64,000 bases of DNA. It comes from an uncultured Candidatus Bathyarchaeia archaeon. Its GTDB lineage: Archaea > Thermoproteota > Bathyarchaeia > 40CM-2-53-6. A program made the position numbers and the translations under genes. Below the pieces are notes generated by a model. That model saw only the letters and a list, made by a program, of their open reading frames with translations, had not been told where the DNA came from and made no database searches. Location of the stretch: the NCBI GenBank assembly GCA_964533505.1, contig CAZHKA010000042.1, forward strand, positions 26,656-90,655. The letters run 5' to 3'. Below are positions 3,791 through 40,255 of this stretch, in pieces. Each line of letters starts with the position of its first letter. Position 1 is the stretch's first letter.

Positions 3791-3904
3791 AACTGTTCAA
3801 CCAGACCGCGGGACTGCCCAACGGAGAATTAAACTGACTTTCAGAGAATCACGATTGAAATAGACCCTCAGCCGGCGCTATTCAGATAGAAAGTCTCGAG
3901 CAGC

Positions 3905-17939: not shown

Positions 17940-20312
17940 TCAGAAGGCTTTGTGTTCCGTTCGTGCGATAATTTCATCCTGTAGAGTTTTGCCGAGGTCG
18001 CAGAAGTAGTCGCTGTACCCTGCCACTCGGACGATCAGGTCGCGATATTTCTCGGGGTTTGCCTGTGCTTCGCGGAGGGTTTCTGCCGTCACGACGTTCA
18101 TCTGGATGTGGTGGCCGTCGAGTTTGAAGTAGGACCGCACCAAGTGTGCTAGGTTGTCGATTCCTAATTCGCCTTCTAGGAGTGAGGGTGAAAATTTCTG
18201 GTTTAGCAGTGTTCCTCCTGACCTAACTTGGTCCATCTTGGCTACTGACTTGATTACGGCCGTAGGGCCGTGGGTGTCGGCTCCCTGAACCGGCGAGACT
18301 CCTTCGGAGACTGGTTCGTGTGCGTGTCTTCCATCAGGCGTTGCGCCTACTTTAGAGCCGAAGTAGACGTGGCATGTTGTGGAGAGGTAGTTCACCGCAT
18401 AGAAACCCCCTTTAGTGTTCTTTCTGCCGCTGATCACGTCATAAAGTGAATTGAATGTCGCTTTCAACAACTCATCCGCGTAGTCATCGTCGTTCCCATA
18501 CTTCGGTGTCTTGTTCCAAAGCATTTGGCGTATCAGTTCATGCCCTTCAAAATTCGTGTTCAGCGTCTCGAGCAGTTGCTCCATGCTCAGACGATTCTCT
18601 TCGAAGACGTGGCGTTTGATTGCGGCGAGGCTGTCGGTAAGCGTGCCGATGCCGACCGGCATTATGTAGGTTGTATTGTAGCGCGGACCTCCGTCGTTGT
18701 AGTCTCTGCCCTTCTTGATGCAATCGTCTATTAGGGTCGATAGAAATGGGGCGGGCATTTGTTCGGCAAATATCCTCTCAATAATGTTGCTGCCTCTAAC
18801 TTTGGTCTCAATGAAATATCTCAACTGCTTGTTGAATGCAGTGAAGAGTTCTTCGAAAGAAGTGAAACTTGTAGGGTCGCTCGTGGTAGCGCCAACTTTC
18901 TTTCCCGTGCTTGGGTCGACTCCGTTGTTTAGTGTAAATTCTAAGATCTTTGGGAGATTCAAGTAACCGGTGAGTATGTAGGCCTCCTTACCGAAGCACC
19001 CTGTTTCAATACAACCGCTTATGCCTCCCGAGCGTGCGTCTTCAACCGTCTTACCTTGCCGGACCAGTTCTTCGACGATCAGGTCGGCATTGAATATGGA
19101 CGGTTGTCCCCATCCCTTCCTGATGATTTCACATGCACGCTTTACGAACCGGTCGGGACTCTTCCTGCTGAGTTGGATGTTTGAGGAGGGTTGTATGAGC
19201 GTCATCTCATCTATAACGTCCAAGACCAAGTAGCTCAGTTCGTTGACACCATCTGAACCGTCCGGCCTGAGGCCTCCGACGTTGATGTTTGCGAAGTCCG
19301 TGTAGGTTGCGCTCTCCTCGGCGGTCACTCCGACCTTTGGCGGCGCGGGTTGATTGTTGAATTTAATCCAGAGACATTCTAAGAGTTCTTTTGCTTGATC
19401 TCTCGTTAGTGTCCCATCTCTTAGCCCGTTTCTATAGAACGGGAAAAGGTGCTGGTCCAAATGGCCCGGGCAGAAAGAGTCCCAGGTGTTAAGTTCGGTG
19501 ATTACACATAGGTGAACGAACCAATAGGCCTGCAGCGCCTCCCAGAAGTTACGTGGCGCATGTGCGGGTACGTTTGAGCAGACCTCGGCGATTTTCTCCA
19601 GCTCCTCTTTTCGTTGAGCGTCGGTTTCATGCTTAGCCATCTCTTGTGCTTTGTCTGCATGGCGCTCAGCAAATCGTATAACGGCGTCACAACAAATCGA
19701 CATAGCCTCTAGCTCTTTCTGTTTGCGGAAAGCGTCGGGGTCGTTGTAGAAATCGAGCTTCTCTTTAGCACTCTCAATGTCGGCTTTGAAATCTAAGAAG
19801 CCTTTACGGTATATCTTGTCATCCAAGACCGTGTGCCCAGGGGCTCGCTGCTCCATGAACTCGGTGTAGACACCCGCTTCGTACGCTGCTTTCCACTGTT
19901 CCGACATTTCGGAGAAGAGACGATCACGAATAGTTCGCCCTTGCCAAAATGGGATAATTCTGTCCTCATAGAGTCTGCGGGTTTGATCGTCAACCGTAAA
20001 GGAGATCTTCTTGCGGTCGTTGAGAATTTGAAGGTCCTTAAGGCTGTGACAGCACAGCTCTGGGTAAGTAGGGGTAGCCTTCGGACTAGGCCCCCTTTCC
20101 CCGACGATCAGTTCCCTGTCACCCAAGTAGATTTCTTTCTTCTCGAGCAAGTGCTTGAATGCAAGGGCTCTCTTGATCGGGCTAGCGGGTTCCGAGGATC
20201 TTTCATAGAACTCAGTCATCAGCTCCGCTCTTTCGGTTGAGATTCGAGGTTTCGTATCTAAGCTACGTTGCCTAAGTTTTCTCACTCTTTCATTCATTTG
20301 ACTATCCTCCAA
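17940..20312 (-). CDS. glycyl radical enzyme (PFL2 / dehydratase-lyase type)
   Basis: 790 aa. C-terminal RVAGYSDYF Gly-radical fingerprint. A single catalytic Cys sits in GISGCIETGCFGKE (Cys-x-Glu). An activase gene lies immediately upstream. Confidence 0.9.
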   Translation of the reverse strand: MEDSQMNERVRKLRQRSLDTKPRISTERAELMTEFYERSSEPASPIKRALAFKHLLEKKEIYLGDRELIVGERGPSPKATPTYPELCCHSLKDLQILNDRKKISFTVDDQTRRLYEDRIIPFWQGRTIRDRLFSEMSEQWKAAYEAGVYTEFMEQRAPGHTVLDDKIYRKGFLDFKADIESAKEKLDFYNDPDAFRKQKELEAMSICCDAVIRFAERHADKAQEMAKHETDAQRKEELEKIAEVCSNVPAHAPRNFWEALQAYWFVHLCVITELNTWDSFCPGHLDQHLFPFYRNGLRDGTLTRDQAKELLECLWIKFNNQPAPPKVGVTAEESATYTDFANINVGGLRPDGSDGVNELSYLVLDVIDEMTLIQPSSNIQLSRKSPDRFVKRACEIIRKGWGQPSIFNADLIVEELVRQGKTVEDARSGGISGCIETGCFGKEAYILTGYLNLPKILEFTLNNGVDPSTGKKVGATTSDPTSFTSFEELFTAFNKQLRYFIETKVRGSNIIERIFAEQMPAPFLSTLIDDCIKKGRDYNDGGPRYNTTYIMPVGIGTLTDSLAAIKRHVFEENRLSMEQLLETLNTNFEGHELIRQMLWNKTPKYGNDDDYADELLKATFNSLYDVISGRKNTKGGFYAVNYLSTTCHVYFGSKVGATPDGRHAHEPVSEGVSPVQGADTHGPTAVIKSVAKMDQVRSGGTLLNQKFSPSLLEGELGIDNLAHLVRSYFKLDGHHIQMNVVTAETLREAQANPEKYRDLIVRVAGYSDYFCDLGKTLQDEIIARTEHKAF

Positions 20313-21264
20313 CTTTAACCATTAATCCAAAACCTTCCAATTTCTCCACTATCCTATCTACGCTCGAGGAAGAAGGTGGTTTGACTTCCGGCATTTGGTT
20401 TACCATTCCGAGCCGCTTGTACTTTTCGATTCCAAGGTCATGGTAGGGAAGAACATCAATCTCCTTCACCTTTCCTAACGAAGACACGAATTCGCCCAGT
20501 CGTGAAAGATTCGAGTCATCGTCATTCACGCCGGGGATGAGAGGGAAGCGAACGATGACGTGGTCGTGAACCTTCGCGAGCTGTTGTAAGTTCCTCAAAA
20601 TCACGGCATTTGTTGATCCCGTGAACTTACGATGGATATCACCATCGATGACTTTCAGATCATACAAGAACAATCCTACATATGGGGCGAAATTCAGTAA
20701 GGTCTCGGAGCCTACGAGACCGCAAGTCTCCACGGCCGTATGTATGCGCTTTTCATTGCAGCTTTGCAGCAGACCTAGTAGAAAGAGGGATTGCGCGAAG
20801 GGTTCGCCGCCTGAAAAAGTCACTCCTCCGTCAGATTCATCGTAGAAAACCGTGTCTTTCTCTATCTCCGCCATGACTTCGGAGACTCTAACACTCTTCC
20901 CAGCCATTTCTCTGGCCTTCGCTTGGCATGCCCGGACACACATGCCCGAAAGCTTGCACGAGGTTCTGAGCATACTTGGGATCGAATCTACGATCTTGAT
21001 TGCGTGATTCGGGCAAGCCTCAACACAGCTGAAACAACGAATGCATCTCTCTTCTGTGTAAACAACTTGGGCTTCTGCGAACTGTCCTTCCGGATTGTGG
21101 CACCACCAACAGTGAAGAGGACAACCTTTGAAGAAGACGGCGGTCCGGATGCCTGGGCCGTCGTGAGTAGAGAATTTTACTATATCAAAAATAGTTCCAG
21201 CAGCCTCTTCGATTCGGTTTTCGTGAATCAGATGACCGCTTAGGCTCGACGGCTGCTCTAACAA
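20302..21264 (-). CDS. glycyl-radical enzyme activating protein (radical SAM)
   Basis: CPLHCWWC (CxxxCxxC) cluster, GPGIRT, plus ferredoxin-like CIRCFSCVEACP and CKLSGMCVRAC inserts. Overlaps the GRE start by 11 nt. TTG start. Confidence 0.9.
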   Translation of the reverse strand: MLEQPSSLSGHLIHENRIEEAAGTIFDIVKFSTHDGPGIRTAVFFKGCPLHCWWCHNPEGQFAEAQVVYTEERCIRCFSCVEACPNHAIKIVDSIPSMLRTSCKLSGMCVRACQAKAREMAGKSVRVSEVMAEIEKDTVFYDESDGGVTFSGGEPFAQSLFLLGLLQSCNEKRIHTAVETCGLVGSETLLNFAPYVGLFLYDLKVIDGDIHRKFTGSTNAVILRNLQQLAKVHDHVIVRFPLIPGVNDDDSNLSRLGEFVSSLGKVKEIDVLPYHDLGIEKYKRLGMVNQMPEVKPPSSSSVDRIVEKLEGFGLMVKVGG

Positions 21265-21612: not shown

Positions 21613-21999
21613 ATGACGATAGTCAGCCTATCTTTTCCCGAGTCCATGATACGTGAAATGGATCAAATTCAAAAGTCTGGTGGCTTTGCAGGTAGGTCCG
21701 AACTAGTTAGGGCTGCGGTCAGACTGCTGATTGAGGATTCGAAAGAAAAAGATACGTTGTCCGGCCATATGAATGCGATTGTGCTCGTTACGCACGATGA
21801 GTCTGACGAAGCGCCTGTAACCAGGCTCAAACATGAGTTTGAGGACATCGTCAGAACACATATTCACAACAAGATTAGCAAGAACAACTGTGTCGAACTA
21901 TTTCTTTTGGAAGGTGAAGGAAAGACAATCGGCACGATGGTACGAGAATTTCAGAAAGAGGACAAACTGAAAAGCGTTAAGCTAGTTATCATCGACTAG
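21613..21999 (+). CDS. nikR: nickel-responsive regulator NikR (RHH + ACT-like domain)
   Basis: N-terminal ribbon-helix-helix (IVSLSFPESMIREMDQI...GFAGRSELVRAAVRLL). C-terminal domain has the His/Cys pattern (VLVTHDE...THIHNK...NCVE). Confidence 0.75.
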   Translation: MTIVSLSFPESMIREMDQIQKSGGFAGRSELVRAAVRLLIEDSKEKDTLSGHMNAIVLVTHDESDEAPVTRLKHEFEDIVRTHIHNKISKNNCVELFLLEGEGKTIGTMVREFQKEDKLKSVKLVIID

Positions 22000-26950: not shown

Positions 26951-27637
26951 CTATTTCTTGAGCAGCCCATCTTGGAATTTGATGCTGGCGTGGCTGCCGT
27001 TGCAGAAAGGCATGTTGTTCGAGGCGCCGCAGCGGCAAAGCGTTACGCGGTTTCGTACCTCATAGGGTTTGCCGTCCTCAGATTCAATTGTTATCCCCCC
27101 GCGGACCCACAACGGCCCGCTACAGCCGACCTCCGGATCCTCAATCACACCAATCGAGGGTGGGAGTTTGTGTTCAATCATTTTCCCCGTCTCCTTGTCG
27201 TTCACGACCAATCGGCCTGCGGGGCAGTGATTTGCCTCACGTATGACTAACTTCCGAGCCTCCGGGTTGTTGGTCTGCTCAATCAAACTCCAAATCTTCC
27301 CGGCAGGGTCGCAGAATCGGGCGAAGGCACATAGATTCTCGGCATCGCTCAAAGTCATTGTGGGCCCGTCAAATGTTTCCGCTTGCCTTGCAAAGGGTGT
27401 GCGCGTCGCGGTCTCCCTTCCGTCGAACCTCATCTTCGTATGACTACCATCACAGAAGGGTTTAGTTTTCGAATGCCCGCAGCGACAAAGTTTGTACTCC
27501 GATTTTGTGTCGAAAGTTTTGCCCTGCTTCCAATCCCAGGAAAAGCCCTCACGATTGGCAGTGATTACCTGCACCGCAAGCCGAACGCCACCTGATACAA
27601 TGTAAGGTCCATCCTTAGACACGACGACCTTCTTCAA
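26951..27637 (-). CDS. CDGSH-type iron-sulfur protein with two CDGSH motifs
   Basis: CRCGHSKTKPFCDGSH and CRCGASNNMPFCNGSH, with additional Cys (CPAGR) between them. The start overlaps the DUF302 stop (ATGA). Confidence 0.8.
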   Translation of the reverse strand: MKKVVVSKDGPYIVSGGVRLAVQVITANREGFSWDWKQGKTFDTKSEYKLCRCGHSKTKPFCDGSHTKMRFDGRETATRTPFARQAETFDGPTMTLSDAENLCAFARFCDPAGKIWSLIEQTNNPEARKLVIREANHCPAGRLVVNDKETGKMIEHKLPPSIGVIEDPEVGCSGPLWVRGGITIESEDGKPYEVRNRVTLCRCGASNNMPFCNGSHASIKFQDGLLKK

Positions 27638-28067
27638 CTCATCAGCACCTTAGCCTGATCCTGAAGCGCGCCGTCGATTAATGTGTCGATTCCTGCGATG
27701 TTCTTTGTCAGGTCGCTTGGCAGATTGTGGCGGTTGGCTAGGTAGGATACACTTTTGTAACTAACCCTAACACGACCATCCCTATCCTCCCAAACAAGAG
27801 CTTTCAACGGCAAATCCAGCGCGACCAAAGGTGAGGCCATCATCAACGGTGTTCCCGCCTTCGGACTTCCGAAAGGTATCAACTTAGCCTCCTGCATTTT
27901 GAGGCCGACCTTCTCCGCTCCGCTGTGGTCAACCACATGAAAATCACAAGGCCCTTCGCGCGTATGACAGTCTCTAGCCGATCCAATGTCTCCGGCAAGG
28001 AACGTCGACTAGCCTTAGTCACTACACCAGCGGAACCCAATGTGTTGATGCCCACAGCCCCGTACAT
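27634..28067 (-). pseudogene. DUF302 domain protein, one frameshift
   Basis: ORF 28067->27879 (..LPETLDRLETVIRAKGLVIF) and ORF 27936->27634 (VVDHSGAEKVGLKM..FGSPKAGTPLMM...DLPLKALVWEDRDGRVRVSY) together form a DUF302-like protein. They join if the A4 run at 27940-27943 (T4 in gene sense) had one more base. Confidence 0.6.
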
Positions 28068-29234: not shown

Positions 29235-30302
29235 CTAATCTGGTGGTAAGTACGTGCACACTTCTGAGGGCTTCTCCATGATACGGTTGATCGTGACTTC
29301 GCCGATGATTCTGCAGTATTTCGCGATCTGAGTTAGGTTCCGGATTATAATGCGGAGACTCGCTGCAAAACTCGCATCCTTCACGTACGTCATGACCTTC
29401 TGGGTTAACTTTCGCTCGTCGTCCTCCACGGTGTCAAGAGACTCCAGCGCTTCGTTGGCGAGGTTGATCTCACCGGTAAGAAATGACTTGAAGCTGTGCT
29501 CAGAGATCTGGGTAACCTGACCTGCAAACTTTGCGATCTCGCGAAAAATTGTTTCGCTACCAGGTTCTCTATCTTTCAACGCCAAGACTTCGGTCGCAAT
29601 ATTCTCCGCGGAGTCCGCCATCTCTTCCAGAACCCCAGCGACTAATCTATTGCCGACTATGTGGAGCGGGGATTCTATGCCAATGGCGGAGGCCGTAGTT
29701 CGATCGTATATTGCCAATATTAGCTGCCTAACTATGAGCCAGTAGATCCTATCCGACTCATCCTCCATGTGTCTAACCTCGGACGCAAGTTCATGACGAC
29801 CCTCAACTAACGCTTTGATTGACACCTCAATCATTGATGACATTATCACGTGCAGCCTGCGCATGAGCCCATAAATTGGGAATCTAGTTGGATCAATGAA
29901 GCTCTGCAGGGTTATCTGTCCGAGAGTCTGCTCAACAATACTCATACCAGTCAGACGCCGAATCGTTGCTCGAATCTCTTCGAGGTGCCTTTTCTTCAAC
30001 TCGTCTCTGGCGACAACCTTAGTCGTGTCGTGGCCGAGGATGTAGTTCCCTGTTATTATTCGAGTAAGAAGGTTAGGTGGGCCGCAGAGCTCTGCGTTTA
30101 CTACGCAGGTCTTCACTTCATCGCGCTTGCGCTCCGTCCCGGGAACAAGCTTCAATGAAGAGTCGTCTTCCCGCTTGATTGAGATAATGTCGCCCGCCTT
30201 GAGCTTCACATCTTCGACCCATCCTCGGGGGAGAGAGACGGTTAAGGTAGAATATCCGACCCTCTGAACCTTCCTTGCCTCCAACGGCCGACGCTCAATC
30301 AA
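29235..30302 (-). CDS. AbrB/SpoVT-domain plus PhoU-domain regulator
   Basis: N-terminus VQRVGYSTLTVSLPRGWVEDVKLKAGDIISI (AbrB-like swapped hairpin), followed by two helical PhoU-like repeats. Confidence 0.65.
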   Translation of the reverse strand: MIERRPLEARKVQRVGYSTLTVSLPRGWVEDVKLKAGDIISIKREDDSSLKLVPGTERKRDEVKTCVVNAELCGPPNLLTRIITGNYILGHDTTKVVARDELKKRHLEEIRATIRRLTGMSIVEQTLGQITLQSFIDPTRFPIYGLMRRLHVIMSSMIEVSIKALVEGRHELASEVRHMEDESDRIYWLIVRQLILAIYDRTTASAIGIESPLHIVGNRLVAGVLEEMADSAENIATEVLALKDREPGSETIFREIAKFAGQVTQISEHSFKSFLTGEINLANEALESLDTVEDDERKLTQKVMTYVKDASFAASLRIIIRNLTQIAKYCRIIGEVTINRIMEKPSEVCTYLPPD

Positions 30303-30474: not shown

Positions 30475-30681
30475 TTGTCCGAGACGGAACAAATAGAAAA
30501 GTTGAAGGAGGTTGCCATGAACGGTCCAACTCTCGACATGATGTTGAAGGCTGTTGACGCAATTGGCACTTTTGGCCAAAACGCAGTACCCACGCTGCTT
30601 GAACTAAGTCATTCTGCAACGAACCCTAACGTTGCCGCGCGGGCATTAAAGATTCTAAGAGCAGTGAAGGAAGGATTCTAA
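30475..30681 (+). CDS. small HEAT-repeat-like protein (hypothetical)
   Basis: 68 aa, AVDAIGTFGQNAVPTLLELSHSATNPNVAARALKIL. Its 3' end overlaps the convergent gene by 4 nt. Confidence 0.3.
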   Translation: MSETEQIEKLKEVAMNGPTLDMMLKAVDAIGTFGQNAVPTLLELSHSATNPNVAARALKILRAVKEGF

Positions 30682-30950
30682 GCTTCTTCTACCGTAGCCA
30701 ACTGTTGTTCTTCGTGTTCTTTCAACCACTTCGCTACGGATTCTCTGAATTCCTTAACAGATATGCAACCTCTTTGTCTTTGATCCTGCAACTGGCGCAC
30801 AAAATTCCCAAATTCTCGTTTGTGTAGGTCGATCTTTTCTGCTTTGTTGAGCAGTTCTTGATTCTGGTCAGCGTTCATAATGTCGTGAGAGACACGCAGG
30901 TGCGTCATGAGGTCTCGGTTTTCTTTTTTGCAAACCGGGCAGGTAGGCAT
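30678..30950 (-). CDS. small C2H2-like zinc-finger protein
   Basis: MPTCPVCKKENRDLMTHLRVSHDI (CxxC...HxxxxH), then a charged helical tail. Begins 14 nt after the preceding gene. Confidence 0.45.
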   Translation of the reverse strand: MPTCPVCKKENRDLMTHLRVSHDIMNADQNQELLNKAEKIDLHKREFGNFVRQLQDQRQRGCISVKEFRESVAKWLKEHEEQQLATVEEA

Positions 30951-30963
30951 TCGTCTCTGTCTT

Positions 30964-31656
30964 CTATTTCTCTTCAGCTAATTCCTCAAGCATCTTCTCG
31001 TGGCGTATCTCATCCGTAGCGATCTTCCTAAAGCTTTCGCGTATCGACCTGAGTACCTCTATCTGATCCCTTGAGTCCTCTACGAGTTTTGTAAGTGCGG
31101 TTTTCACATTACTCTCGCTTCTGTCGGCCATCTTCATGTAACTGTCGACGATGTCCTCTTCAACGGCTATCCAGTAGCTGATGTTTTCTTCAATCACACG
31201 CTGATATCCTGAGAGCACGTCTCTTTCCACTTTGATGGCTTGATCAAAATTCTCGATATTGGGCACTATTCGTTCGTGGAAGGGTTCCCATGCTTTCACG
31301 GTTCTCTGTTGCAGTTTCAGAGCGTATTCGTTTCCGAGTTCGTTCATAGCTTGGATTATAAGGCGATCTTCGACGTTTCGCAGTTCGCACTTAATCCGAG
31401 AGACAACATTCTGGCCGCAGCACCCGACACAGAACCCCAAGTACGCATCAATTTCTCGTGGTGTCAATTCACTAGGGTTAGGGTGAGTTTCGCATTGCGT
31501 GATAAGACTTCTCGTGCTTCTAAGCGATGTATAGGTTTCTGGTGCGACCTTTACTCCGCGATTCTCGAGATCTGCGCTAATCTCGTTCAGAGTATCCCAG
31601 GTTTTCTCTAGTAAGTAGCATTGTTCTCGCTCTTTGCTCACCTGTTCTTGCGTCAT
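30964..31656 (-). CDS. Cys-rich protein of unknown function (paralog of 38277-38744) with extra C-terminal helical domain
   Basis: 230 aa. Shares with the 155-aa paralog QC..LE..W..LNE, LITQC.THP, EID, GFCVGCCG, RIKCELRNVED, AMNELG..YALKLQ..TVKAW. The C-terminal part ends in DEIRHEKMLEEL. Confidence 0.6.
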   Translation of the reverse strand: MTQEQVSKEREQCYLLEKTWDTLNEISADLENRGVKVAPETYTSLRSTRSLITQCETHPNPSELTPREIDAYLGFCVGCCGQNVVSRIKCELRNVEDRLIIQAMNELGNEYALKLQQRTVKAWEPFHERIVPNIENFDQAIKVERDVLSGYQRVIEENISYWIAVEEDIVDSYMKMADRSESNVKTALTKLVEDSRDQIEVLRSIRESFRKIATDEIRHEKMLEELAEEK

Positions 31657-31825
31657 TTCAGCACCATCCGATTCCTCTGGAACTAGCTTTTGGCATAGTC
31701 CACACTCGCCTCACTTGAAACCCGTGAAAATAAATGGATGCGCCATAGACTTACCATAATAGCACATAGAACATATAATGGCCTTGAGTACAGCGTTTTC
31801 GACAGCGGCGCTGGAGTCAATCTCC

Positions 31826-33289
31826 TTACGGCCTTCTTAGAGTGTGGGTCACTATTCTCTGCTTGTTGTAGATCTTGATGTCGAGAGGCATTTGTCCCGG
31901 AAGAGTGTGCGTAGCGCAGGCGTAGCAAGGGTCGTAGGCTCTGAAGGCCATCTCGACCATGTTGAGGATGCCGTCCGACACTTCGCCTTTCTTGATCAAC
32001 CCTTCGGCGGCCTGCTTAATCGACATGCTAATCGCGGCGTGATTGTTGACGGTGGCTACGATTAAATTGACATTCTTCACCATTCCTTGCTCATCAGTTT
32101 TGTAATGGTGGATTAAGGTACCGCGAGGGGCCTCGATCGAGCCTACACCTTCGTCGGGTACTGCCGTTGGGAGGGTTTGAACGTTTGGACTTGTAATGTC
32201 TGGATCTCGGCTAAGTTCCAACATTCGCTCGGCCGCATACATGAGCTCCACAAGGCGCGCCCAGTGAGTGGCGAGTGTTGAATGAATCGGTTTCTTGCCT
32301 CCTAGCGTTTCATACATTCTCTTGTATTCCGCCTGCGCGATTGGAGTGGCCATACCTTCTGACGCATTCAATCGGGCTAGAGGTGTGGCTCGGTAAACAC
32401 CGCTGCCCTTCCCGCCAACCAGTCCTTTCCATCCAACTTTCTTGAGATATGGATACTTGAGGTATGTCCAGGGTTCGACGTGTTCCGAGATGTATTGCTG
32501 ATAATCTGCAGGTGAATATTTTTCGAACTCAATTCCGTCGGGATCGACTACTCTGTTTTTGCCGTCGTAGAAGTTTACGCGGTTTCGGTCGTCGACCGTG
32601 CCCATGTAGTATGTCTCTGTTGCGTAGATGTCGCTCGTTATGAGATTCACGTACTCTTTGTTGCCAAGTACGATATCGTCAAAGATTTTCAATGTGAACT
32701 TGGCGAATTCCACTTCGGACTCCGCTATTGCCTCGATTTTGGCTCGCTGGGCTTCGGTTATGGGTTTCCGTACTCCGCCTGGGACTCCGCAGATTGGGTG
32801 AATCCTCTTTCCCCCAATCATTGCAATCACGTCGAGGGCGTCTGAGCGATGTTTGATTACGGAACTACCGACATCAAGTCCAACTTTCGCTATGACGCTG
32901 AGTATGTTTCGTTCCGCTTTAGGAGCGGTGGGTCCCATTATGAAGTCTGGACCAGCGAGTACGTAGAAGTGCGTCGTGTGGTCGGCTACGAAGAAGGCGC
33001 TGTAGAGGAGCTCTCTCAACTTTTTGGCTGCGGGCGGTGGGTCGACATGGAAGACTGCGTCGAGCGCTTTTGTCGAGGCTATGTGGTGGGCTTCAGGGCA
33101 AACGCCACAGATTCTGCTGGTGATATCAGGCATTTCTTCGACGGGTCTACCCTCGCAGAATTTCTCAAAGCCTCTGAGCTCCGGAACTTGGAAGTAGGCG
33201 TTTTCTACATTTCCCTCATCGTTGAGGAAGATCGATATCTTCCCGTGCCCTTCAAGTCTAGTGACTGGATTGATTGTGACGGTTTTCAT
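31826..33289 (-). CDS. mvhA: [NiFe] hydrogenase large subunit, F420-non-reducing (Mvh, group 3c type)
   Basis: RLEGHG, RICGVCPEAH (N-terminal NiFe ligands), DPCYACATH (C-terminal ligands) plus a C-terminal extension. Gene context mvhD-mvhG-mvhA. Confidence 0.9.
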   Translation of the reverse strand: MKTVTINPVTRLEGHGKISIFLNDEGNVENAYFQVPELRGFEKFCEGRPVEEMPDITSRICGVCPEAHHIASTKALDAVFHVDPPPAAKKLRELLYSAFFVADHTTHFYVLAGPDFIMGPTAPKAERNILSVIAKVGLDVGSSVIKHRSDALDVIAMIGGKRIHPICGVPGGVRKPITEAQRAKIEAIAESEVEFAKFTLKIFDDIVLGNKEYVNLITSDIYATETYYMGTVDDRNRVNFYDGKNRVVDPDGIEFEKYSPADYQQYISEHVEPWTYLKYPYLKKVGWKGLVGGKGSGVYRATPLARLNASEGMATPIAQAEYKRMYETLGGKKPIHSTLATHWARLVELMYAAERMLELSRDPDITSPNVQTLPTAVPDEGVGSIEAPRGTLIHHYKTDEQGMVKNVNLIVATVNNHAAISMSIKQAAEGLIKKGEVSDGILNMVEMAFRAYDPCYACATHTLPGQMPLDIKIYNKQRIVTHTLRRP

Positions 33290-34242
33290 TTCTTGATCCT
33301 CCTCATCAAAGAACCAGCTAAGCTAAACCGGTAAAATGTTCCAATTGGATCGGCCACGGAATCCGCGAGTTTCTGCATCTCCTCCTCGTTTTCCGTTTCG
33401 AAAACTGATGCTAATGCAGAGAGCATCTTCCCGCCTTGATCTACCACGTTTGGCAGAGGACCGTAGCATCCACGGCATCCTGCATTCGCATCTAGGCATA
33501 TGCCGCCGCAGCCTCCTCGAGTTGCCGGACCCATGCACATAATGCCTTGTTCGAGTAGGCATTTTTCGGGATCCGCAATAGTCTGGTAGCTTCTGACAAG
33601 TTTTGTGATCTTTCTATCGGCTTTAATGCGTTTACATTCGTGGCATAGTGACTTATCGGAGGCTCCCAGGACTGCGCCTTTTGGCGGAAGATTTCCGTCA
33701 ACGAATTGGTTAAGGACTTTCTCCACCTGTGCGCCGACAGGTGGGCATCCCGGTACGTAATAATCGACGTCAACAGTTTGGTCGAGCGTTTTGACCGTGT
33801 TATAGAATTCAGGTATAGTGAGCACTCCTTCCCTCATTTCGACCTTAGTTCTGGGAATGATTTTTTCTGGGTTGTTTGTGGTTTGAGTCTCCTGGTAGGA
33901 GCTTGTGAATATCTCAGCTCGCGTAGTAGTGTTCGCGAGGGCCGGAATTCCGCCGCCGTAAGCGCATGCGCCAAACGCCACAAGCATTTTGCTTTTCGCT
34001 CTGAGGAGCTTGGCGACGTCTTCATTTTCTGAGTTCCGTATAGCCCCGTTGAAGAATGTAACATCGATGCTCTTGTCTGGCATGGCTTCAAGATCTGTGT
34101 ATTTGTAGTCAAATATCGCAGGCCAGAATACGACGTCGACTTTGTTCGACAGTTCTACGAGCTTGGTCCCTAACTCGAAGATCGCTATTTCGCATCCTCC
34201 ACAGCTGCTTGCCCAGTTGAAAGCGATTTTGGGTTTAGTCAT
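33286..34242 (-). CDS. mvhG: [NiFe] hydrogenase small subunit (Mvh)
   Basis: WASSCGGCEIAI, GACAYGGGIP, and Cys clusters CHECK, GPATRGGCGGICLDANAGCRGCYGP. 4-nt overlaps with both neighbours. Confidence 0.85.
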   Translation of the reverse strand: MTKPKIAFNWASSCGGCEIAIFELGTKLVELSNKVDVVFWPAIFDYKYTDLEAMPDKSIDVTFFNGAIRNSENEDVAKLLRAKSKMLVAFGACAYGGGIPALANTTTRAEIFTSSYQETQTTNNPEKIIPRTKVEMREGVLTIPEFYNTVKTLDQTVDVDYYVPGCPPVGAQVEKVLNQFVDGNLPPKGAVLGASDKSLCHECKRIKADRKITKLVRSYQTIADPEKCLLEQGIMCMGPATRGGCGGICLDANAGCRGCYGPLPNVVDQGGKMLSALASVFETENEEEMQKLADSVADPIGTFYRFSLAGSLMRRIKK

Positions 34243-34682
34243 GCTGCGATCGCCATTTCTTTCTTCCAGTTGAGTGGTCCTAGGGAGCGGATTTCTTCTG
34301 TCATGCTTTCTACGATACGAGCGTATCTTCCCCCTTCAGAAGCGGAAACCCATTCCAGCCTAACGCGTTCCTTCTCTATTCCAAATTGCTGAAGTAGCCT
34401 CTGTAGAAGTTTGAATCGCCGGATCGTTTTCGCATTGCCGTTTATGTAGTGGCAGTCTCCCGGATGGCATCCGGCTATCAGTACTCCGTCAGCACCCGTT
34501 GCGAGGGCCTTCAAAACTAGCGTTGGGTCGACTCGGCCGGAGCAGTTTACTCGGATCGGGGTGATGTTCGGAGGGTAGTTGATCCTGCTTAGTCCCGCAA
34601 GATCGGCCCCTGTGTAAGCACACCATCTGCAGAGGAAACCTACGATCTTTGGTTCAAATCGTGTTGCCAAATCAATCACCAT
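34239..34682 (-). CDS. mvhD: methyl-viologen-reducing hydrogenase delta subunit
   Basis: KIVGFLCRWCAYTGADLAG, VNCSGRVDP, GADGVLIAGCHPGDCHY. Confidence 0.9.
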   Translation of the reverse strand: MVIDLATRFEPKIVGFLCRWCAYTGADLAGLSRINYPPNITPIRVNCSGRVDPTLVLKALATGADGVLIAGCHPGDCHYINGNAKTIRRFKLLQRLLQQFGIEKERVRLEWVSASEGGRYARIVESMTEEIRSLGPLNWKKEMAIAA

Positions 34683-34686
34683 GACC

Positions 34687-36645
34687 CTATGAACAAATCG
34701 CCTCGATTTCCGCCATCAACTGCTTGTTGGTGAAATTCTGTTGCTCGATTGCTCCTGATGGACATGCGGCCACGCAGACGCCGCATCCCTTGCAGAGAAC
34801 TGAAGTGATTACGGCACGGCCGCTGGATTCATCAAAATTGATGGCGCCGTAGGGACAGAGGCCGATGCAGATTTTGCATCCGGAGCATGCTTCCTCTTTG
34901 AGGATTGCGATGGTGGGTTCCATCTCGATCTCTCCCTTATCAACGAAAGAGAGCACGTTCGCCGCTGCAGCGGCACCTTGGGCCACGCTGTCGGGGATGT
35001 CTTTGGGGCTTTGGCAGGCCCCTGCGACGTAGATGCCTTGTCCTGCGGTTGAGACAGGGGCGAGTTTGGGATGTCTCTCAAGGAAGAAACCATCTTTGCT
35101 TCTGCTGATTCGAAATACATGCGCTAATTGTCCAGCATCCTTTCTCGGTTCTAGGCCCACGCTCAAAACGACCATGTCGACCGGAATGCGACGCACAATC
35201 CCTAGGAGCGTGTCTTCGGCGACAACAATGAGTTTTCCTTCCTCAGAAGGATTCTGAGCGACGTCTGTGATTTCAGCTACCCTGCCTCTGATGAACGTAA
35301 CGTCTTCATGTAGTACACGTTTGTAGAATTCTTCATACCCTTTCCCAAAGGCTCGCATGTCAATATAGAACTCGTAGACTTTCGCGTCGGTCTTCTCTCG
35401 CACAAGATGGGCGGTTTTCAATGAGTACATGCAGCAAACTCGAGAGCAATGCTCGTTGTAGTTTTGGTCGCGGCTTCCGACGCAATGTACGATCGCAACA
35501 CTCTCGGGCAAGTTACCGTTCTTGAGTTGTATCTTGCCGGCGGTGGGTCCAGAGGCGTGTGTGAGCCTTTCAAATTCTATGCTGGTTATGACATTCGGAA
35601 GCTTGCCATAACCGTATTCTTTGATCCGTGAGGCGTCGAAGAGATCGAAACCGGTGGCTAGAATCGCTGAACCAACCGGAACTTCAATGTATTTCTCTTT
35701 TTGTTCAAAGTCTATTGCGTGATGAGGGCAAAACTTCACGCAAACCTTGCAGATATTTTTTGTGAAGTAGAGGCAGTGTTCACGGTCTATGACGGGTACG
35801 TTTGGCACGGCTTGCGGAAATGGTCTGTAAATTGCTTTTCTCTTTCCGAGCTTACAATCGAATTCGCTCGGGACGCTTAAGGGGCATTTCTCTTCACATA
35901 GGCCGCAACCTGTGCACTTGTCCTCATCAACGTATCTTGGCCTTTTGCGGATTTTCGCCGTGAACTTTCCTACGTATCCTGAGAAGTCTGTAACGTCACT
36001 ATAGGTTAGCAGTTCGATGTTTTCATGTTGTTCAACAGATACCATCTTTGGTGTGAGAATGCAGGCGGCGCAATCGAGAGTTGGAAAGGTCTTGTCAAAT
36101 CGAGTCATATATCCGCCTATAGTGGGTTCCTTCTCCACCAGGTAGACCTTCTTTCCGGAATCTGCGATCTGAAGCGCCGCTTCGATTCCGGTTATCCCAC
36201 CTCCAACAACGAGGACATTCGAATTGACTGGGATCTTTTCCACTTCGAGAGGCTCGTTGAAATTCACTCGCATTACGGCGGCGTTTACAATGGCCTTAGC
36301 TCTTTCCGTTGCAAGTTCTCTATTCTCCGTTATCCAAGAGCACTGCTCGCGAATGTTGGCCATCTGGAAGAGGTACGGATTGAGTCCTGCACTTTGCACA
36401 GCACGCCTGAACGTTGGCTCATGCATTAGCGGTGAACATGAAGCGACGACGACTCTAGTAAGCCCCATCTCGCGAATATCGTTCTTGATCATTTCTTGGC
36501 CAGGATTGGAACACATAAACTGATAGTCCCGAGCAACGGCAACGTTCGGCAGGTGACTGGCGTACTCCGCCAGACCTTTGCAGTCAACGGTCCTGGCTAT
36601 GTTCAACCCACAGTGGCAGATGTAGACCCCGATCTTTTCACTCAA
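34687..36645 (-). CDS. hdrA: heterodisulfide reductase subunit A
   Basis: 652 aa. N-terminal YICHCGLNI, FAD motif VVGGGITGIEAAL, ferredoxin motifs CTGCGLCEEKCP, CSGCKICIGLCP, CKGCGVCVAACP. Confidence 0.9.
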   Translation of the reverse strand: MSEKIGVYICHCGLNIARTVDCKGLAEYASHLPNVAVARDYQFMCSNPGQEMIKNDIREMGLTRVVVASCSPLMHEPTFRRAVQSAGLNPYLFQMANIREQCSWITENRELATERAKAIVNAAVMRVNFNEPLEVEKIPVNSNVLVVGGGITGIEAALQIADSGKKVYLVEKEPTIGGYMTRFDKTFPTLDCAACILTPKMVSVEQHENIELLTYSDVTDFSGYVGKFTAKIRKRPRYVDEDKCTGCGLCEEKCPLSVPSEFDCKLGKRKAIYRPFPQAVPNVPVIDREHCLYFTKNICKVCVKFCPHHAIDFEQKEKYIEVPVGSAILATGFDLFDASRIKEYGYGKLPNVITSIEFERLTHASGPTAGKIQLKNGNLPESVAIVHCVGSRDQNYNEHCSRVCCMYSLKTAHLVREKTDAKVYEFYIDMRAFGKGYEEFYKRVLHEDVTFIRGRVAEITDVAQNPSEEGKLIVVAEDTLLGIVRRIPVDMVVLSVGLEPRKDAGQLAHVFRISRSKDGFFLERHPKLAPVSTAGQGIYVAGACQSPKDIPDSVAQGAAAAANVLSFVDKGEIEMEPTIAILKEEACSGCKICIGLCPYGAINFDESSGRAVITSVLCKGCGVCVAACPSGAIEQQNFTNKQLMAEIEAICS

Positions 36646-37536
36646 CTATCCGAAAACCTCCAAATGTTTCTCCAAGAGTGCCCGACTGGAAATCATTTCC
36701 TCGTCGATTCCGAGCGCTTTACGTGAGAAGCCAAACGCCAACCCCATCAGCTGGGTGAAGTACAATGCTGGAATCTTGAAGTCTGTTCCAAACATTTTGT
36801 TGACATCGCCTTGGTATGTCTCAATGTTCATGTGGCACAGAGGACAAATTGTGACGATGCATTCTGCTCCCTTTTGCTTGGCACATGCAAGGATATTCCT
36901 GTTCAAGCCAAGAGCGACGTCCTCGTTGGTCATCATGAGAAGACCTCCACAACACTTCGTCTTGAGGGGGAAGTCTACCGGCGCTACTCCAATCCATGTT
37001 AGCAGTCTGTCAAGAATCACTGGGAATTGTTTATCGTCGATTTCACCGAAGGGCCGTGTCAATTGGCAGCCGTAGTAAGGAGCCACCTTAAGACCCGACA
37101 GTTTCCTCTTGATTCTGGCTTTGACCTCTTGTTCTCCAACTTCATTGACTATGACCTCCAGCAGATGCCTAACTCTGACACTACCCCGATACTCAAGATT
37201 GGCGGCTTTGAGAGCGGTTTCGATCGTCCTCTTAAATCTCGACTGCTCGGCCAAGTAGTGGTTTGTCTTGGTCAGGGTTGTTAGGCATGCAGGGCAGACG
37301 ACGACAAGATCTTTTTTCTCCTTCTCAGCGAGAACTAAGTTCCTCGCCGACAAAAGATGAGCTTTCATTTCGTCAATGGACATATAGGCCGAAGCTCCAC
37401 AGCAATTCCAATCATTCAGTTCGGCCAGATCGATGTCGAGAGCTTTGCAAACTAACTGCGTTGACTTATCATATGCCCTGTTCATTCCCTCAACAGAGCA
37501 ACCTGGATAGTAGGAGTACCCAAGCCGAGCCTGCAA
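36646..37536 (-). CDS. hdrB: heterodisulfide reductase subunit B (CCG domains)
   Basis: WNCCGAS and KCCGG CCG-type motifs, YYPGCS, VVCPACL. A TTG at 37536 lies directly after the hdrC stop (37539-37541). The longer ORF to 37611 would overlap hdrC. Confidence 0.85.
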   Translation of the reverse strand: MQARLGYSYYPGCSVEGMNRAYDKSTQLVCKALDIDLAELNDWNCCGASAYMSIDEMKAHLLSARNLVLAEKEKKDLVVVCPACLTTLTKTNHYLAEQSRFKRTIETALKAANLEYRGSVRVRHLLEVIVNEVGEQEVKARIKRKLSGLKVAPYYGCQLTRPFGEIDDKQFPVILDRLLTWIGVAPVDFPLKTKCCGGLLMMTNEDVALGLNRNILACAKQKGAECIVTICPLCHMNIETYQGDVNKMFGTDFKIPALYFTQLMGLAFGFSRKALGIDEEMISSRALLEKHLEVFG

Positions 37537-37538
37537 CG

Positions 37539-38165
37539 CTAACTTCCCTCCTCTTTCGTTGAACGGGCGTGAAGGCCTGAGACCATAGGCTCGGTCATCG
37601 CCCCGGCGCATTTCTCCAATTCCGCCATACCGTTAATCTTGTGGGATTTTATGGGCATCCGCCCGCGCTTGAACAGTCTCATGGCCCGTGGAATCATTTT
37701 GAAAGCTCCGAGTGGGTTTGTTTCTAGCATGAACCTGCTGATGAGGGGCACCTCAGCAATCCTTCCGTTCTTGTTGACAATATCGACAAACAGCTTGGCC
37801 ACCACTGGCGCTTTACCTCCCTTTGGTGCTAGCCCGAATTCGATGGCTAGCCGTTTCAGCTCATACATGATATCCGTGAGTTTGATGCCGGAAGGACAGC
37901 GAACTGTGCACGAGTAGCATGATGAACAGAGCCAGATCGTGTTGCTCTTGAGAACTCTTTCAAGCATTCCGGCTCTGAAAGCCGCAATGATCTCTCTGGG
38001 AGTAAAATCCATTGCGTAGCTTGTCGGGCAGGAGGCGCTGCATGTGCCGCACTGGATGCATTCCTTGATCTTGTCTCCACTGGGAATGCCGTAGACATCA
38101 TGGAGGAACACATCGCTTAGGGGATGTGCTGTTCGTTCTATACCCTCTTCTAGCAAGAGCATCAA
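37539..38165 (-). CDS. hdrC: heterodisulfide reductase subunit C
   Basis: CIQCGTCSASCP and CSSCYSCTVRCP. Alternative ATG at 38162. Confidence 0.85.
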   Translation of the reverse strand: MMLLLEEGIERTAHPLSDVFLHDVYGIPSGDKIKECIQCGTCSASCPTSYAMDFTPREIIAAFRAGMLERVLKSNTIWLCSSCYSCTVRCPSGIKLTDIMYELKRLAIEFGLAPKGGKAPVVAKLFVDIVNKNGRIAEVPLISRFMLETNPLGAFKMIPRAMRLFKRGRMPIKSHKINGMAELEKCAGAMTEPMVSGLHARSTKEEGS

Positions 38166-38276
38166 ATGTGGAGGTTTACGTAAGTGGGTATATACATAAC
38201 GCCCGTGTTCTATGTTGCCTATATAGACAGTGTGCGTTTTCTATGCTACGGAACCGTTCTAAAGCATTCTGCTGAA

Positions 38277-38744
38277 CTAACGTGTCGTAAGAGTGAGTGG
38301 CTTCATAGCCGACCACGCTTTCATCGTCTTTTCTTGGAGTTTTAGAGCGAAATCGCTTCCCACTTCATTCATTGCCCTAAGAATAAGCAAATCTTCGACG
38401 CTTCGTAATTCGCATTTGATTCGACCCACAATGTCGGAACCACAGCAGGCAACACAGTAGCCCTCATGGGAGTCGATCTCAGACGACGAAAGATCAGTCA
38501 CCGTCGGATGAGACTTGCATAGACTAATCAAATCCTTCGCTCCCCTCAGCGAGACAAAGATATCTGGCGGAAGACTCACAATACGGCTCGCCAGTTCTGT
38601 TGTGGCTTCATTCAAAATTTCCCATGCATCTTCAAGTTGATCGCATTGACGTTTTGTACGCTGTTCGGCTGTTTCCAACTCTCGAACCAACACCCCACAA
38701 GTACAACTTATAATATAATCACCGTGATGCGACAATATATGCAT
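38277..38744 (-). CDS. Cys-rich protein of unknown function (paralog of N-terminal domain of 30964-31656)
   Basis: 155 aa. QCDQLEDAWEILNE, LISLCKSHP, EID, GYCVACCG, RIKCELRSVED, AMNEVG..FALKLQ..TMKAW. Lies 112 nt upstream of hdrC on the same strand. Confidence 0.6.
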   Translation of the reverse strand: MHILSHHGDYIISCTCGVLVRELETAEQRTKRQCDQLEDAWEILNEATTELASRIVSLPPDIFVSLRGAKDLISLCKSHPTVTDLSSSEIDSHEGYCVACCGSDIVGRIKCELRSVEDLLILRAMNEVGSDFALKLQEKTMKAWSAMKPLTLTTR

Positions 38745-39052: not shown

Positions 39053-40255
39053 TTGGGCGCGGAGAGAAAGCGAGTAAACCACGGCCTTTCGTCCACTCTG
39101 TTCTTGTTGGTTATGACGCTCGGTTACGCTGTTTATGCAGCGGACCGAACCGTCCTCGCCTCTGTACTAGCTCTGCTGGCTCCAGCCCTCAGTTTGACGA
39201 ACTACGAAATCGGCCTGATAGGCTCGGCTCAGTACATTGGCGTTCTGTGCTTCGTCTTCCTCTCGGGTCACCTTTCGGACAAATACGGAAGGAAGACTGT
39301 GATAATCGTCGGCATATTGGTATTCACGCTATTCACTTGGATGATAGGGTTGGCCTCGAATTTCCTTCAAGCGTTCGTCTTTCGCCTCATCAGCGGATTC
39401 GGCGAAGGAATCTTCTGGCCTGTCGCGATGGCTGCGGTGGCGTCATACTTCAAGAATCGAAAAGGATTGGCATTAGGGATATTCTACGTAGGCTTTGATG
39501 TGGGAAGCGTTGCTGGTCTCTCGTTGGGAGGCCTCGCTTATTCACTCTCGGGTGACTGGCGCACCGCCTTCTTCGTGGCGCCATCACTGGGCATCCTCGT
39601 CATCGCTGGTGCAGGCTGGCTGAAAAACGAGTTCGGATCTTCCCCTGAGGACGAAGCCCGAATAAGACTGGGCAGGGACGCATTGGATCTTCTGAAACAG
39701 AGAAGTGTTAACCTCATGTTGATCTTTGCGCTTGTAGCGACTTGGGCTTCTGTCTGGCAAGTGATATTCTTGCCCTACTACTTCTTCAAAGTCCTACATT
39801 TCGGAATATTATCTTCTGCTCTCTTCTCCGCCGTAGTTGCGATTTCGGGAGGGGTCGGTAAGCTCATCTTGGGTGGAATGTCTGACGTTTGGAGAAGGAG
39901 CAGGATGCTTGCAGTAATTGCTCTTGCTGTGCTATTGTCGTATGCTGGTTTTTTCGCAACATCTAACCCGATCCTTGCCCTCGCGGTAGCGATCATCATG
40001 GGCTTCTTTAGCAGCTCAATCTTTCCAATCATGCAGGCGCTCGTGGCAGATATTTGCAAGGGTAGAACTGGAACGGCTCTCGGACTCACCACGACCTCCC
40101 AATCAGTAGCCACCGTTTTTTCACCCATAATCACCGCCTCGCTCTTCGCAATCGGCGTGGGAAGAGCCGTGGCGTTGAATGCTATGATACCCGCCGCACT
40201 TACATTGTTGCTGGCTCTGATGCTAAAGGACCTTCAACCGCCGACTACGCGATAG
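39053..40255 (+). CDS. MFS transporter
   Basis: 400 aa, about 12 TM, with an MFS loop motif (GHLSDKYGRK). Confidence 0.8.
   Translation: MGAERKRVNHGLSSTLFLLVMTLGYAVYAADRTVLASVLALLAPALSLTNYEIGLIGSAQYIGVLCFVFLSGHLSDKYGRKTVIIVGILVFTLFTWMIGLASNFLQAFVFRLISGFGEGIFWPVAMAAVASYFKNRKGLALGIFYVGFDVGSVAGLSLGGLAYSLSGDWRTAFFVAPSLGILVIAGAGWLKNEFGSSPEDEARIRLGRDALDLLKQRSVNLMLIFALVATWASVWQVIFLPYYFFKVLHFGILSSALFSAVVAISGGVGKLILGGMSDVWRRSRMLAVIALAVLLSYAGFFATSNPILALAVAIIMGFFSSSIFPIMQALVADICKGRTGTALGLTTTSQSVATVFSPIITASLFAIGVGRAVALNAMIPAALTLLLALMLKDLQPPTTR

Follow-up and report, generated by a model that had tools for sequence, protein, structure and literature searches.

The described systems closest to the proteins reported here are the DUF2096_N domain (Pfam PF23100), rubrerythrin and reverse rubrerythrin, the CCG domain of HdrB (PF02754), the DsrK substrate DsrC and the MvhB/VhuB polyferredoxin. 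The proteins are a short and a long six-Cys paralog, CysS and CysL. Their genes flank an hdrCBA-mvhDGA operon, for a hydrogen-oxidizing enzyme, on the minus strand of the window, a 64,000-nucleotide (nt) stretch of DNA from an uncultured Candidatus Bathyarchaeia archaeon (contig CAZHKA010000042.1, positions 26,656 to 90,655). Profile and alignment evidence firmly places both in a six-Cys(+His) subfamily of DUF2096_N that has not been described before and can carry a half-ferritin-like partner domain. Comparison of gene neighborhoods indicates, equally firmly, that within one Bathyarchaeia clade this subfamily is a dedicated genetic companion of the HdrA-Mvh module. The subfamily probably binds metal. 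Our favored reading, with a probability of about one in three, is that CysS and CysL are metal-center accessory or redox-partner proteins of HdrA-MvhDGA, recruited in one clade.

DUF2096_N has the same four-helix bundle. It shares with the window proteins a Trp in helix 1, the motif L-R-x-x-K-x-L-I in helix 2 and R-I-x-x-E-L-x-N-x-E-D ... N-x-L-G-x-x-Y-A in helices 3 and 4. Unlike the window proteins, canonical members have neither the ~20-residue insert nor the six Cys; the window proteins in turn lack the DUF2096 C-terminal part, and CysL has a ferritin-like hairpin in its place. Rubrerythrin and reverse rubrerythrin consist of a di-iron four-helix bundle and a Cys4 iron domain. They resemble CysL in joining a Cys-ligated metal domain (putative in CysL) to ferritin-like helices in a small acidic protein of anaerobes, and the C-terminal domain of CysL shows weak profile similarity to the Rubrerythrin, Ferritin and DUF2383 models, with all matches under the Pfam cut-offs. 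CysL, however, has two such helices only, its E...ExxH pairs are incomplete, and its Cys domain is a predicted helical bundle rather than a rubredoxin knuckle. The CCG domain of HdrB carries a non-cubane [4Fe-4S] cluster, and both adjacent Cys ligate iron. A literal C-C-G within a multi-Cys motif is also present in the Cys proteins beside Hdr, but the CCG spacing is C-xn-CC-xn-C-x2-C in an alpha/beta domain, compared with C-x41-C-x20-C-x2-CC-x9-C in an all-alpha bundle. PF02754 does not match CysS or CysL at E-values up to 0.1, while the window HdrB scores 90.7 bits in the same scan.

DsrC, the protein trisulfide/disulfide on which the HdrD-like DsrK acts, is likewise a small Cys protein tied to an Hdr-type system without a small-molecule substrate. 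It has two Cys on a C-terminal arm, whereas the six Cys and the His of CysS and CysL are internal (13-90) and the C-terminus is free of Cys. Neither Cys protein matches the DsrC family in Pfam or NCBIfam, and their linkage follows HdrA-Mvh and not the CCG subunit. MvhB/VhuB of methanogens is encoded, as CysL is, directly after mvhA (or mvhA-hycI) and is presumed to serve the Mvh hydrogenase in auxiliary electron transfer. It is a 12-cluster polyferredoxin with CxxCxxCxxxCP motifs; the Cys proteins are without such motifs and have a different fold. We found no paper naming DUF2096, PF23100 or PF09869, and papers on Hdr diversity and on Bathyarchaeia make no mention of the six-Cys genes.

Six-Cys proteins of the DUF2096_N family

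The pair is encoded by two genes, the second with two domains:

38277..38744, minus strand: CysS, the short six-Cys paralog, a predicted four-helix bundle with a Cys-rich insert; open reading frame (ORF) of 155 amino acids (aa) as called; PF23100, 25.2 bits
31279..31656, minus strand: N-terminal six-Cys DUF2096_N domain of CysL, residues 1-126; PF23100, 29.2 bits
30964..31278, minus strand: C-terminal two-helix hairpin of CysL, residues 127-230; helices 137-179 and 182-229 in the AlphaFold2 (AF2) model

CysS and CysL are 48% identical over 125 aa (BLASTP, E 3e-46), so the initial annotation was right to call them paralogs with a common domain of ~120 aa. The six Cys of the 230-aa CysL are C13, C55, C76, C79, C80 and C90, with the spacing given above. 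All six are invariant in alignments of database orthologs (98 of 98 long, 96 of 96 short), which upholds the conserved set with its CxxCC motif that had been read from the window alone. A His three residues past the second Cys is found in every short paralog and in at least 90% of a 50-sequence mixed alignment, and invariant Gly, Glu and Asp residues accompany the Cys. The pairing of flanking paralogs with conserved Cys is real and far beyond chance. Both proteins are small, soluble and acidic (isoelectric point, pI, ~5), and an NCBIfam scan returned no family for either.

The 155-aa ORF of CysS is probably over-extended. The 104 CysS orthologs are mostly ~133 aa long. In 86-91 of the 96 short paralogs in the alignment, the first 17 codons of the ORF fall opposite gaps. 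These codons overlap a TATA-like TTATATTA at 38718-38711, ~25 nt upstream of an in-frame GTG/TTG. Translation therefore probably starts at the GTG/TTG at 38693/38690 and gives a product of ~137-138 aa. The ORF and coordinates reported earlier exist, but the protein was probably given 17 codons too many. The N-terminal extension, with two extra Cys, was rejected as part of the protein because it is not conserved. A selenocysteine or frameshift in the long paralog was also considered and rejected; the full 233-aa ORF is intact in the related locus L009, so the 130-aa database entries annotated as 'rubrerythrin', which are C-terminal halves, are gene-caller truncations.

The initial annotation could not place the shared domain in any named family. 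Pfam assigns it to PF23100: CysL scores over the gathering cut-off of 26 bits and CysS marginally under it, and many of their orthologs carry a precomputed match. By this profile evidence both are divergent members of DUF2096_N, a named but uncharacterised family. The window proteins align to positions 1-47/48 only of the 96-position model. The match stops halfway because a Cys-rich insert of ~20 residues, …L-T-P-x-E-I-D-S-Y-L-G-F-C-V-G-C-C-G, interrupts it between helices 2 and 3. The insert supplies C76, C79 and C80 (G-F-C-V-G-C-C-G) ahead of helix 3. There is indirect support for homology of the second half: Cys-less or Cys-poor relatives of 100-125 aa, found with the window profile, cover PF23100 positions 1-94 with up to 63 bits, and the Cys-less ones can be aligned with the window proteins over helices 3 and 4. 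Where named, the Cys-less relatives are a 'DUF2096 family protein' or 'hypothetical protein' of Bathyarchaeota, Aigarchaeota and Nitrososphaerales (Thermoproteota). The other three Cys, C13 in helix 1, C55 at the end of helix 2 and C90 early in helix 3, replace hydrophobic or aromatic residues of these relatives. These three Cys lie next to H58, a His conserved across the wider DUF2096_N family.

Both AF2 models are all-alpha, with a four-helix up-down bundle (pLDDT, predicted local distance difference test, 82-90). The helices of the CysL N-domain span residues 2-32, 39-57, 84-107 and 109-122 (pLDDT 89.9), and those of CysS residues 3-35, 43-61, 81-110 and 113-128 (pLDDT 81.9). The Cys loop is the sole low-confidence region (pLDDT 61-80), which fits a metal site, as the metal is missing from the AF2 model. 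From the helix boundaries of the models we infer that C13, C55, H58 and C90 are at equal height in the bundle, with C76, C79 and C80 capping helix 3. Foldseek searches of the PDB with the full CysL model and the CysS domain model gave generic helical bundles only (best E 1-2), and sequence and profile searches of the PDB gave no significant relative for either protein.

The C-terminal hairpin of CysL has near-invariant residues Y151, N158, W162, E166, E167, D168, S172, E200, R206 and K211. It had been described as ferritin/rubrerythrin-like with an ExxH helix. The label is right as distant ancestry, because the hairpin profile aligns with each half of a rubrerythrin-like protein of 139 aa (hhalign probability 76.6%); on this evidence the hairpin is half a ferritin/rubrerythrin bundle. 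The ExxH motif is conserved only in part: H219 is invariant in 98 of 98 orthologs, while the E216 position is Glu in 55, Asp in 24 and another residue in 19. The aligned motif is D-S-x-x-H and not E-x-x-H. Its His is present in 71 of the 98 orthologs and replaced by Gln in 25, the window protein among the latter. More distant stand-alone relatives have lost the motif entirely. The Rubrerythrin model gives the window CysL 15.2 bits against a cut-off of 22.8, which the best stand-alone relative reaches. The four-helix bundle with two E...ExxH pairs that characterizes PF02915 and PF00210 is absent, as CysL has two long helices only, and a canonical di-iron site in the C-domain was rejected on ligand conservation. 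Dimerisation could conceivably create a site.

The hairpin also exists as a protein in its own right (homologs of 105-120 aa), as a fusion behind a prokaryotic cytochrome b561 (Ni_hydr_CYTB) domain, and in a permuted architecture ahead of a short-paralog-type Cys domain (P0102, P0222, L019). Fusion of the two domains in either order, N-to-C or C-to-N, and their occurrence as separate genes suggest that they work together. The cytochrome fusion is the 353-aa database protein P0225, in which the membrane domain is joined to the half-ferritin-like hairpin. The 139-aa rubrerythrin-like four-helix protein is the closest full-bundle relative of the CysL C-domain. It is encoded beside the hdr-mvh cluster in two loci (L001, 1740-2159, minus strand; L009, 10637-11053, plus strand), where its gene overlaps and directly precedes the delta/alpha/beta genes of pyruvate:ferredoxin oxidoreductase.

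Linkage to HdrA-MvhDGA

The operon between the two Cys genes encodes a complete enzyme set:

37539..38165, minus strand: hdrC-like 4Fe-4S dicluster subunit; Fer4_8 and Fer4_17; TIGR03290 85.5 bits, under the cut-off (160)
36646..37611, minus strand: hdrB-like subunit with two CCG domains; PF02754 twice, E 6e-26; TIGR03288 219.8 bits, under the cut-off (345)
34687..36645, minus strand: hdrA-like FAD/Fe-S flavoprotein by Pfam; NF040770 (HdrA2) 864 bits, cut-off 1100
34239..34682, minus strand: mvhD; PF02662 (FlpD), E 2e-53
33286..34242, minus strand: mvhG, [NiFe]-hydrogenase small subunit; PF01058 (Oxidored_q6); VhuG model 196.5 bits, under the cut-off
31826..33289, minus strand: mvhA, [NiFe]-hydrogenase large subunit; PF00374 (NiFeSe_Hases); VhuA 381 bits, cut-off 800

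The ORF list contains every ORF that the earlier reader had named, at the same positions and in the same minus-strand order: the 155-aa ORF, hdrC, hdrB, hdrA, mvhD, mvhG, mvhA, the 230-aa ORF and a 90-aa ORF. All six HdrABC-MvhADG subunits are present and adjacent, each with its Pfam domains, and every one scores under the NCBIfam equivalog cut-offs for the methanogen enzymes. The hdrA-like product is a candidate electron-bifurcating subunit, and MvhA ends in a DPCxxCxxH motif followed by an extension. From hdrB to mvhA the genes overlap or lie 0-4 nt apart. The true hdrB start is probably near 37536, because the longest ORF (321 aa) overlaps hdrC by 73 nt while the orthologs are 279-296 aa long. 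The window has no hycI, the gene that comes next after mvhA in many relatives. No methanogenesis genes were met among the ~40 window ORFs scanned, in line with the earlier remark that none was visible.

Carriers of the six-Cys proteins are few. An exhaustive profile search of 1.84 billion representative proteins (E up to 1e-3) found 77 relatives, Cys-less and Cys-poor ones included. A pattern scan that covered 185,579 species with one genome apiece gave 10 loci, all from Bathyarchaeia or Bathyarchaeota. Named database matches of CysS and CysL are from Bathyarchaeia, and the narrow carrier group consists of soil and peat Bathyarchaeia. The window proteins served as the reference in tblastn and hidden Markov model searches of 33 fetched loci. 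The loci of the clade that holds both window paralogs, at identities of at least ~45%, are called the window clade. At every locus of this clade with usable flanks, mvh genes lie no more than ~2 kb from the Cys genes. Genes like hdrA are present as well on all but the short truncated contig L033, which yielded mvhG and mvhA alone. Co-localisation of homologs with hdr/mvh had been set beforehand as a check, and the window clade passed it at every usable locus.

The gene order around this linkage varies. Four relatives (L008-L010, L012) keep the bracketing of the window, short paralog - hdrCBA - mvhDGA - (hycI) - long paralog. In seven others (L001-L007) hdrCBA - mvhDGA - hycI - long paralog faces a short paralog on the opposite strand, and hypC, a hypB-like gene and hypA lie 3-5 kb beyond the convergent pair. 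A third arrangement, short paralog - QmoC-like - QmoA-like - HdrA - mvhDGA - (hycI) - long paralog, is found in L011, which has hycI, and in L014, where hycI was undetected; MvhA is ~57% identical. The remaining arrangements are two tandem Cys-domain genes after mvhA (L017), a single Cys-domain gene after mvhA-hycI (L016, L020) or after mvhA with no hycI detected (L033), the permuted fusion upstream of a Qmo-like/Mvh operon (L019), and a short paralog beside mvhD-hdrA with a separate C-domain gene close by (L018). The bracketing first noted in the window thus recurs in relatives, including those in which MvhA is only ~57% identical and Qmo-like genes have replaced HdrBC. By this comparison the constant partner of the Cys genes is HdrA-MvhDGA rather than HdrBC. 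A single inversion linking the bracketing and convergent arrangements was rejected, as the zinc-finger ORF downstream of CysL is also relocated.

In the Qmo-like variant a full-length QmoC-like protein and an HdrA-core protein of 445 aa take the place of HdrC and HdrB. The hybrid operon (L011, 2016-9469; also L014, L016, L019 and L020) has the appearance of an Mvh hydrogenase coupled to a Qmo-like module with a membrane anchor; its QmoC-like protein matches NF038018 over the full length with 205 bits.

A sister subfamily, at ~35-40% identity, keeps all six Cys and the His, so that the six Cys are conserved across three subfamilies (short, long and sister). It is only partly linked to hydrogenases. 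One member (L022 = L023 = L025) is divergent from hdrA-mvhDGA without hdrBC, beside a group-4 hydrogenase/Mrp-like cluster, and another (L028) abuts a group-4 [NiFe] hydrogenase or complex-I-like cluster. In three loci (L026, 5355-5789; L030, 9920-10387; L032, 2742-3152) the six-Cys gene lies between genes for Trm1 (tRNA m2,2G) and an FtsJ/RrmJ methyltransferase, and the available flanks of 3-10 kb contain no mvh/hdr match. These metagenome contigs are low in GC (36-39%) and share a conserved synteny. Pfam identifies RsmB and TFB genes nearby, where a large ORF also looks SMC-like by eye. Locus L024 (114-1447), a short contig, has three tandem DUF2096_N genes: a Cys-less one of 117-120 aa, a partly Cys one of 186-207 aa with an N-terminal extension, and a six-Cys one of 135 aa. 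They are followed by a CBS-domain gene and a membrane-protein ORF, possibly FeoB-like by eye. The tandem triplet hints that DUF2096_N proteins form hetero-oligomers.

Function of the six-Cys pair

If CysS and CysL are metal-center accessory or redox-partner proteins of HdrA-MvhDGA, then C13, C55, H58 and C90 would form, by helix register, a Cys3His metal site (Fe-S, Fe or Zn), and the CxxCC cap would be a second metal site, possibly between subunits. CysS and CysL would assemble into a hetero-oligomer in which the hairpins pair into a four-helix ferritin-like bundle. The acidic complex would dock on HdrA/MvhD and accept or donate electrons there. Rather than belonging to the catalytic core, it could serve as an alternative electron acceptor or donor, or as a sink that protects against oxidants. 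We favor this reading because the seven putative ligands, six Cys and a His, are kept across subfamilies, because the C-domain turns up repeatedly in redox surroundings (fused to cytochrome b, in the rubrerythrin-like relative by the pyruvate:ferredoxin oxidoreductase genes, and with Hdr-Mvh), and because the two domains persist together in three architectures. A pI of ~5 suits electron carriers and binding partners and speaks against direct DNA binding, and the mvh linkage survives several rearrangements.

Several observations weigh against it. The metal center is itself putative, drawn from Cys/His conservation and helix register, and PDB and Foldseek searches gave no solved structure or family with a comparable site. 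The ferritin-like ligands are degenerate, with DSxxH for ExxH and, in the window, Gln where 71 of 98 orthologs have His. The sampled clade is narrow, and part of the linkage could be inherited synteny. Sister members with the same Cys set sit at the hydrogenase-free Trm1-FtsJ loci, so the fold with this Cys set is not intrinsically a part of Hdr/Mvh. Finally, the gaps next to the Cys genes, with conserved TATA-like or operator-like sequence, and the variable gene orientation fit independent regulation better than stoichiometric subunits. The sequences and genes concerned are the following:

38166..38276, minus strand: CysS-hdrC spacer of 111 nt with two TATA-like boxes (CTATATA, TATGTATATAC) in its sequence
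31692..31781, minus strand: non-coding element of ~90-95 nt in the 169-nt gap between mvhA and CysL; conserved in L001, L005, L009 and L012
30678..30950, minus strand: C2H2-like zinc-finger ORF of 90 aa (C-x2-C-x9-H-x4-H); weak Pfam zinc-finger matches only
29235..30302, minus strand: AbrB(SpoVT)-PhoU type regulator; PF04014 and PF01895

The sequence of the 111-nt spacer is conserved among relatives, with upstream regions aligned by eye, and it is probably the promoter of the hdr-mvh operon itself. CysL starts 169 nt past mvhA. The element in this gap is near-invariant in the four other genomes and stays with CysL with or without an intervening hycI. It contains CTAT(N)ATG repeats, a T-rich/TATA-like tract ATTTATTTT and an imperfect 12-bp inverted repeat; its consensus fold has one covarying pair. 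Rfam has no match for the cluster and its spacers, the element included, and the window holds no second copy. The element could be a promoter or operator, an mvh terminator or a leader RNA. A repeated operator-like motif shared by the promoters of the Cys genes in the window was sought and rejected, as only chance-level repeats were found.

The zinc-finger ORF starts 13 nt downstream of CysL in the window. An ortholog of 68% identity is divergent and upstream of hdrC in L001-L006 (L001, 2369-2614, minus strand). This ORF moves between genomes and is a candidate small regulator of the cluster. Homologs of the AbrB-PhoU regulator (40-71% identity) lie within ~6 kb of the cluster in L001-L009.

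The 111-nt and 169-nt gaps with conserved TATA-like sequence, together with the relocation of the zinc-finger gene, suggest that the Cys genes are separate transcription units. This favors a different role for the pair, as a redox- or metal-sensing module that responds to redox state, O2, H2-derived reducing power or Fe/Ni and controls hdr-mvh through a DNA-binding partner, putatively the adjacent zinc-finger protein or the AbrB-PhoU regulator. Both of these recur nearby. The sister gene of L022 is divergent from hdrA and the short paralog occurs on either strand across genomes; the family is lineage-specific, as regulators often are, and its sister subfamily sits in unrelated contexts. Against sensing, both proteins are acidic and have no DNA-binding domain recognisable with Pfam or NCBIfam, and a paralog pair plus a ferritin-like domain would be atypical. 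We consider a sensor unlikely.

The most conserved adjacency, mvhA-hycI-long paralog, is a typical position for a hydrogenase accessory gene. It would suit a clade-specific maturation or assembly factor, such as a metallochaperone or Fe-S/Ni handler that helps to build or repair HdrA-MvhADG, a complex very rich in Fe-S. The nearby hyp genes of L001-L007 agree with this, and the ferritin-like domain could hold iron. The nickel site of HypB is CxxCGC, to which the CxxCC of the Cys proteins is loosely similar. Such a factor could not be a general requirement, however, since the family is missing from all other Mvh-containing archaea. The window and L008-L010 are without hycI beside the long paralog, the sister subfamily also occurs away from any hydrogenase, and Pfam and NCBIfam show no similarity to the Hyp, Hup or Hox accessory families. 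A maturation role is rather unlikely on this evidence.

That an Hdr-like enzyme can have a protein as its substrate is known from DsrK, which acts on DsrC. By analogy CysS and CysL could be a thiol/disulfide substrate of HdrB, with a hetero-disulfide between the paralogs, or between their flexible Cys loops, reduced by HdrBC in place of CoM-S-S-CoB. A conserved paralog pair on both sides of hdrCBA and vicinal Cys in a low-confidence loop of the models fit this idea, and the oxidant or substrate of Hdr in non-methanogenic Bathyarchaeia is stated to be unknown (PMC7886697). The constancy of HdrA-MvhDGA as partner weakens it: the Cys genes are still there at loci that have QmoC/QmoA-like genes instead of HdrBC, or that have no HdrBC at all. 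Six invariant Cys with a His suggest a metal site and not a two-Cys redox pair, the proteins have no similarity to DsrC, and their Cys are not on a terminal arm. We regard a disulfide substrate as very doubtful.

A lack of any functional link, with general DUF2096-type proteins held in place by inherited synteny in a shallow clade, would agree with carriers limited to ~10 species-level genomes, all Bathyarchaeia, with housekeeping contexts of the sister subfamily and with widespread Cys-less DUF2096 proteins in Thermoproteota, but it is quite improbable, as the linkage outlasts inversion, loss or gain of hycI, Qmo-like replacement of HdrBC, tandem duplication and gene fusion, and holds with MvhA identity down to ~45-57%.

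Other window genes and wider meaning

One further gene adjoins the cluster:

39053..40255, plus strand: MFS transporter (PF07690), divergent neighbor of CysS; orthologs of 78-84% identity adjoin CysS in L001-L010

Elsewhere in the window, a glycyl-radical enzyme (PFL-like, 790 aa) with its radical-SAM activase (17940-21264, minus strand) is followed by a NikR-type nickel-responsive regulator (21613-21999, plus strand), ~10 kb from the hydrogenase genes. The minus strand also encodes a Rieske protein with an ethylbenzene-dehydrogenase-like heme protein (610-2408), a ferritin beside a MarR regulator (3374-4354), and a CDGSH iron-sulfur protein with a DUF302 neighbor (26951-27936).

Hydrogenase complexes of the electron-bifurcating Hdr-Mvh type are widespread among uncultured archaea that are not methanogens, and the Cys pair is a concrete candidate for an accessory, partner or sensor of such a complex. 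It is improbable that CysS and CysL are the physiological partner of Hdr-Mvh in non-methanogenic Bathyarchaeia, as a helical-bundle Fe-S carrier or a hetero-disulfide couple of paralogs. If they were, the CysS/CysL redox couple would replace CoM-S-S-CoB or ferredoxin and explain a bifurcating enzyme outside methanogenesis. For DUF2096, a family without literature, the linkage provides a first functional foothold, in which a plain helical bundle appears to have gained a probable metal site through three core substitutions and one insert.

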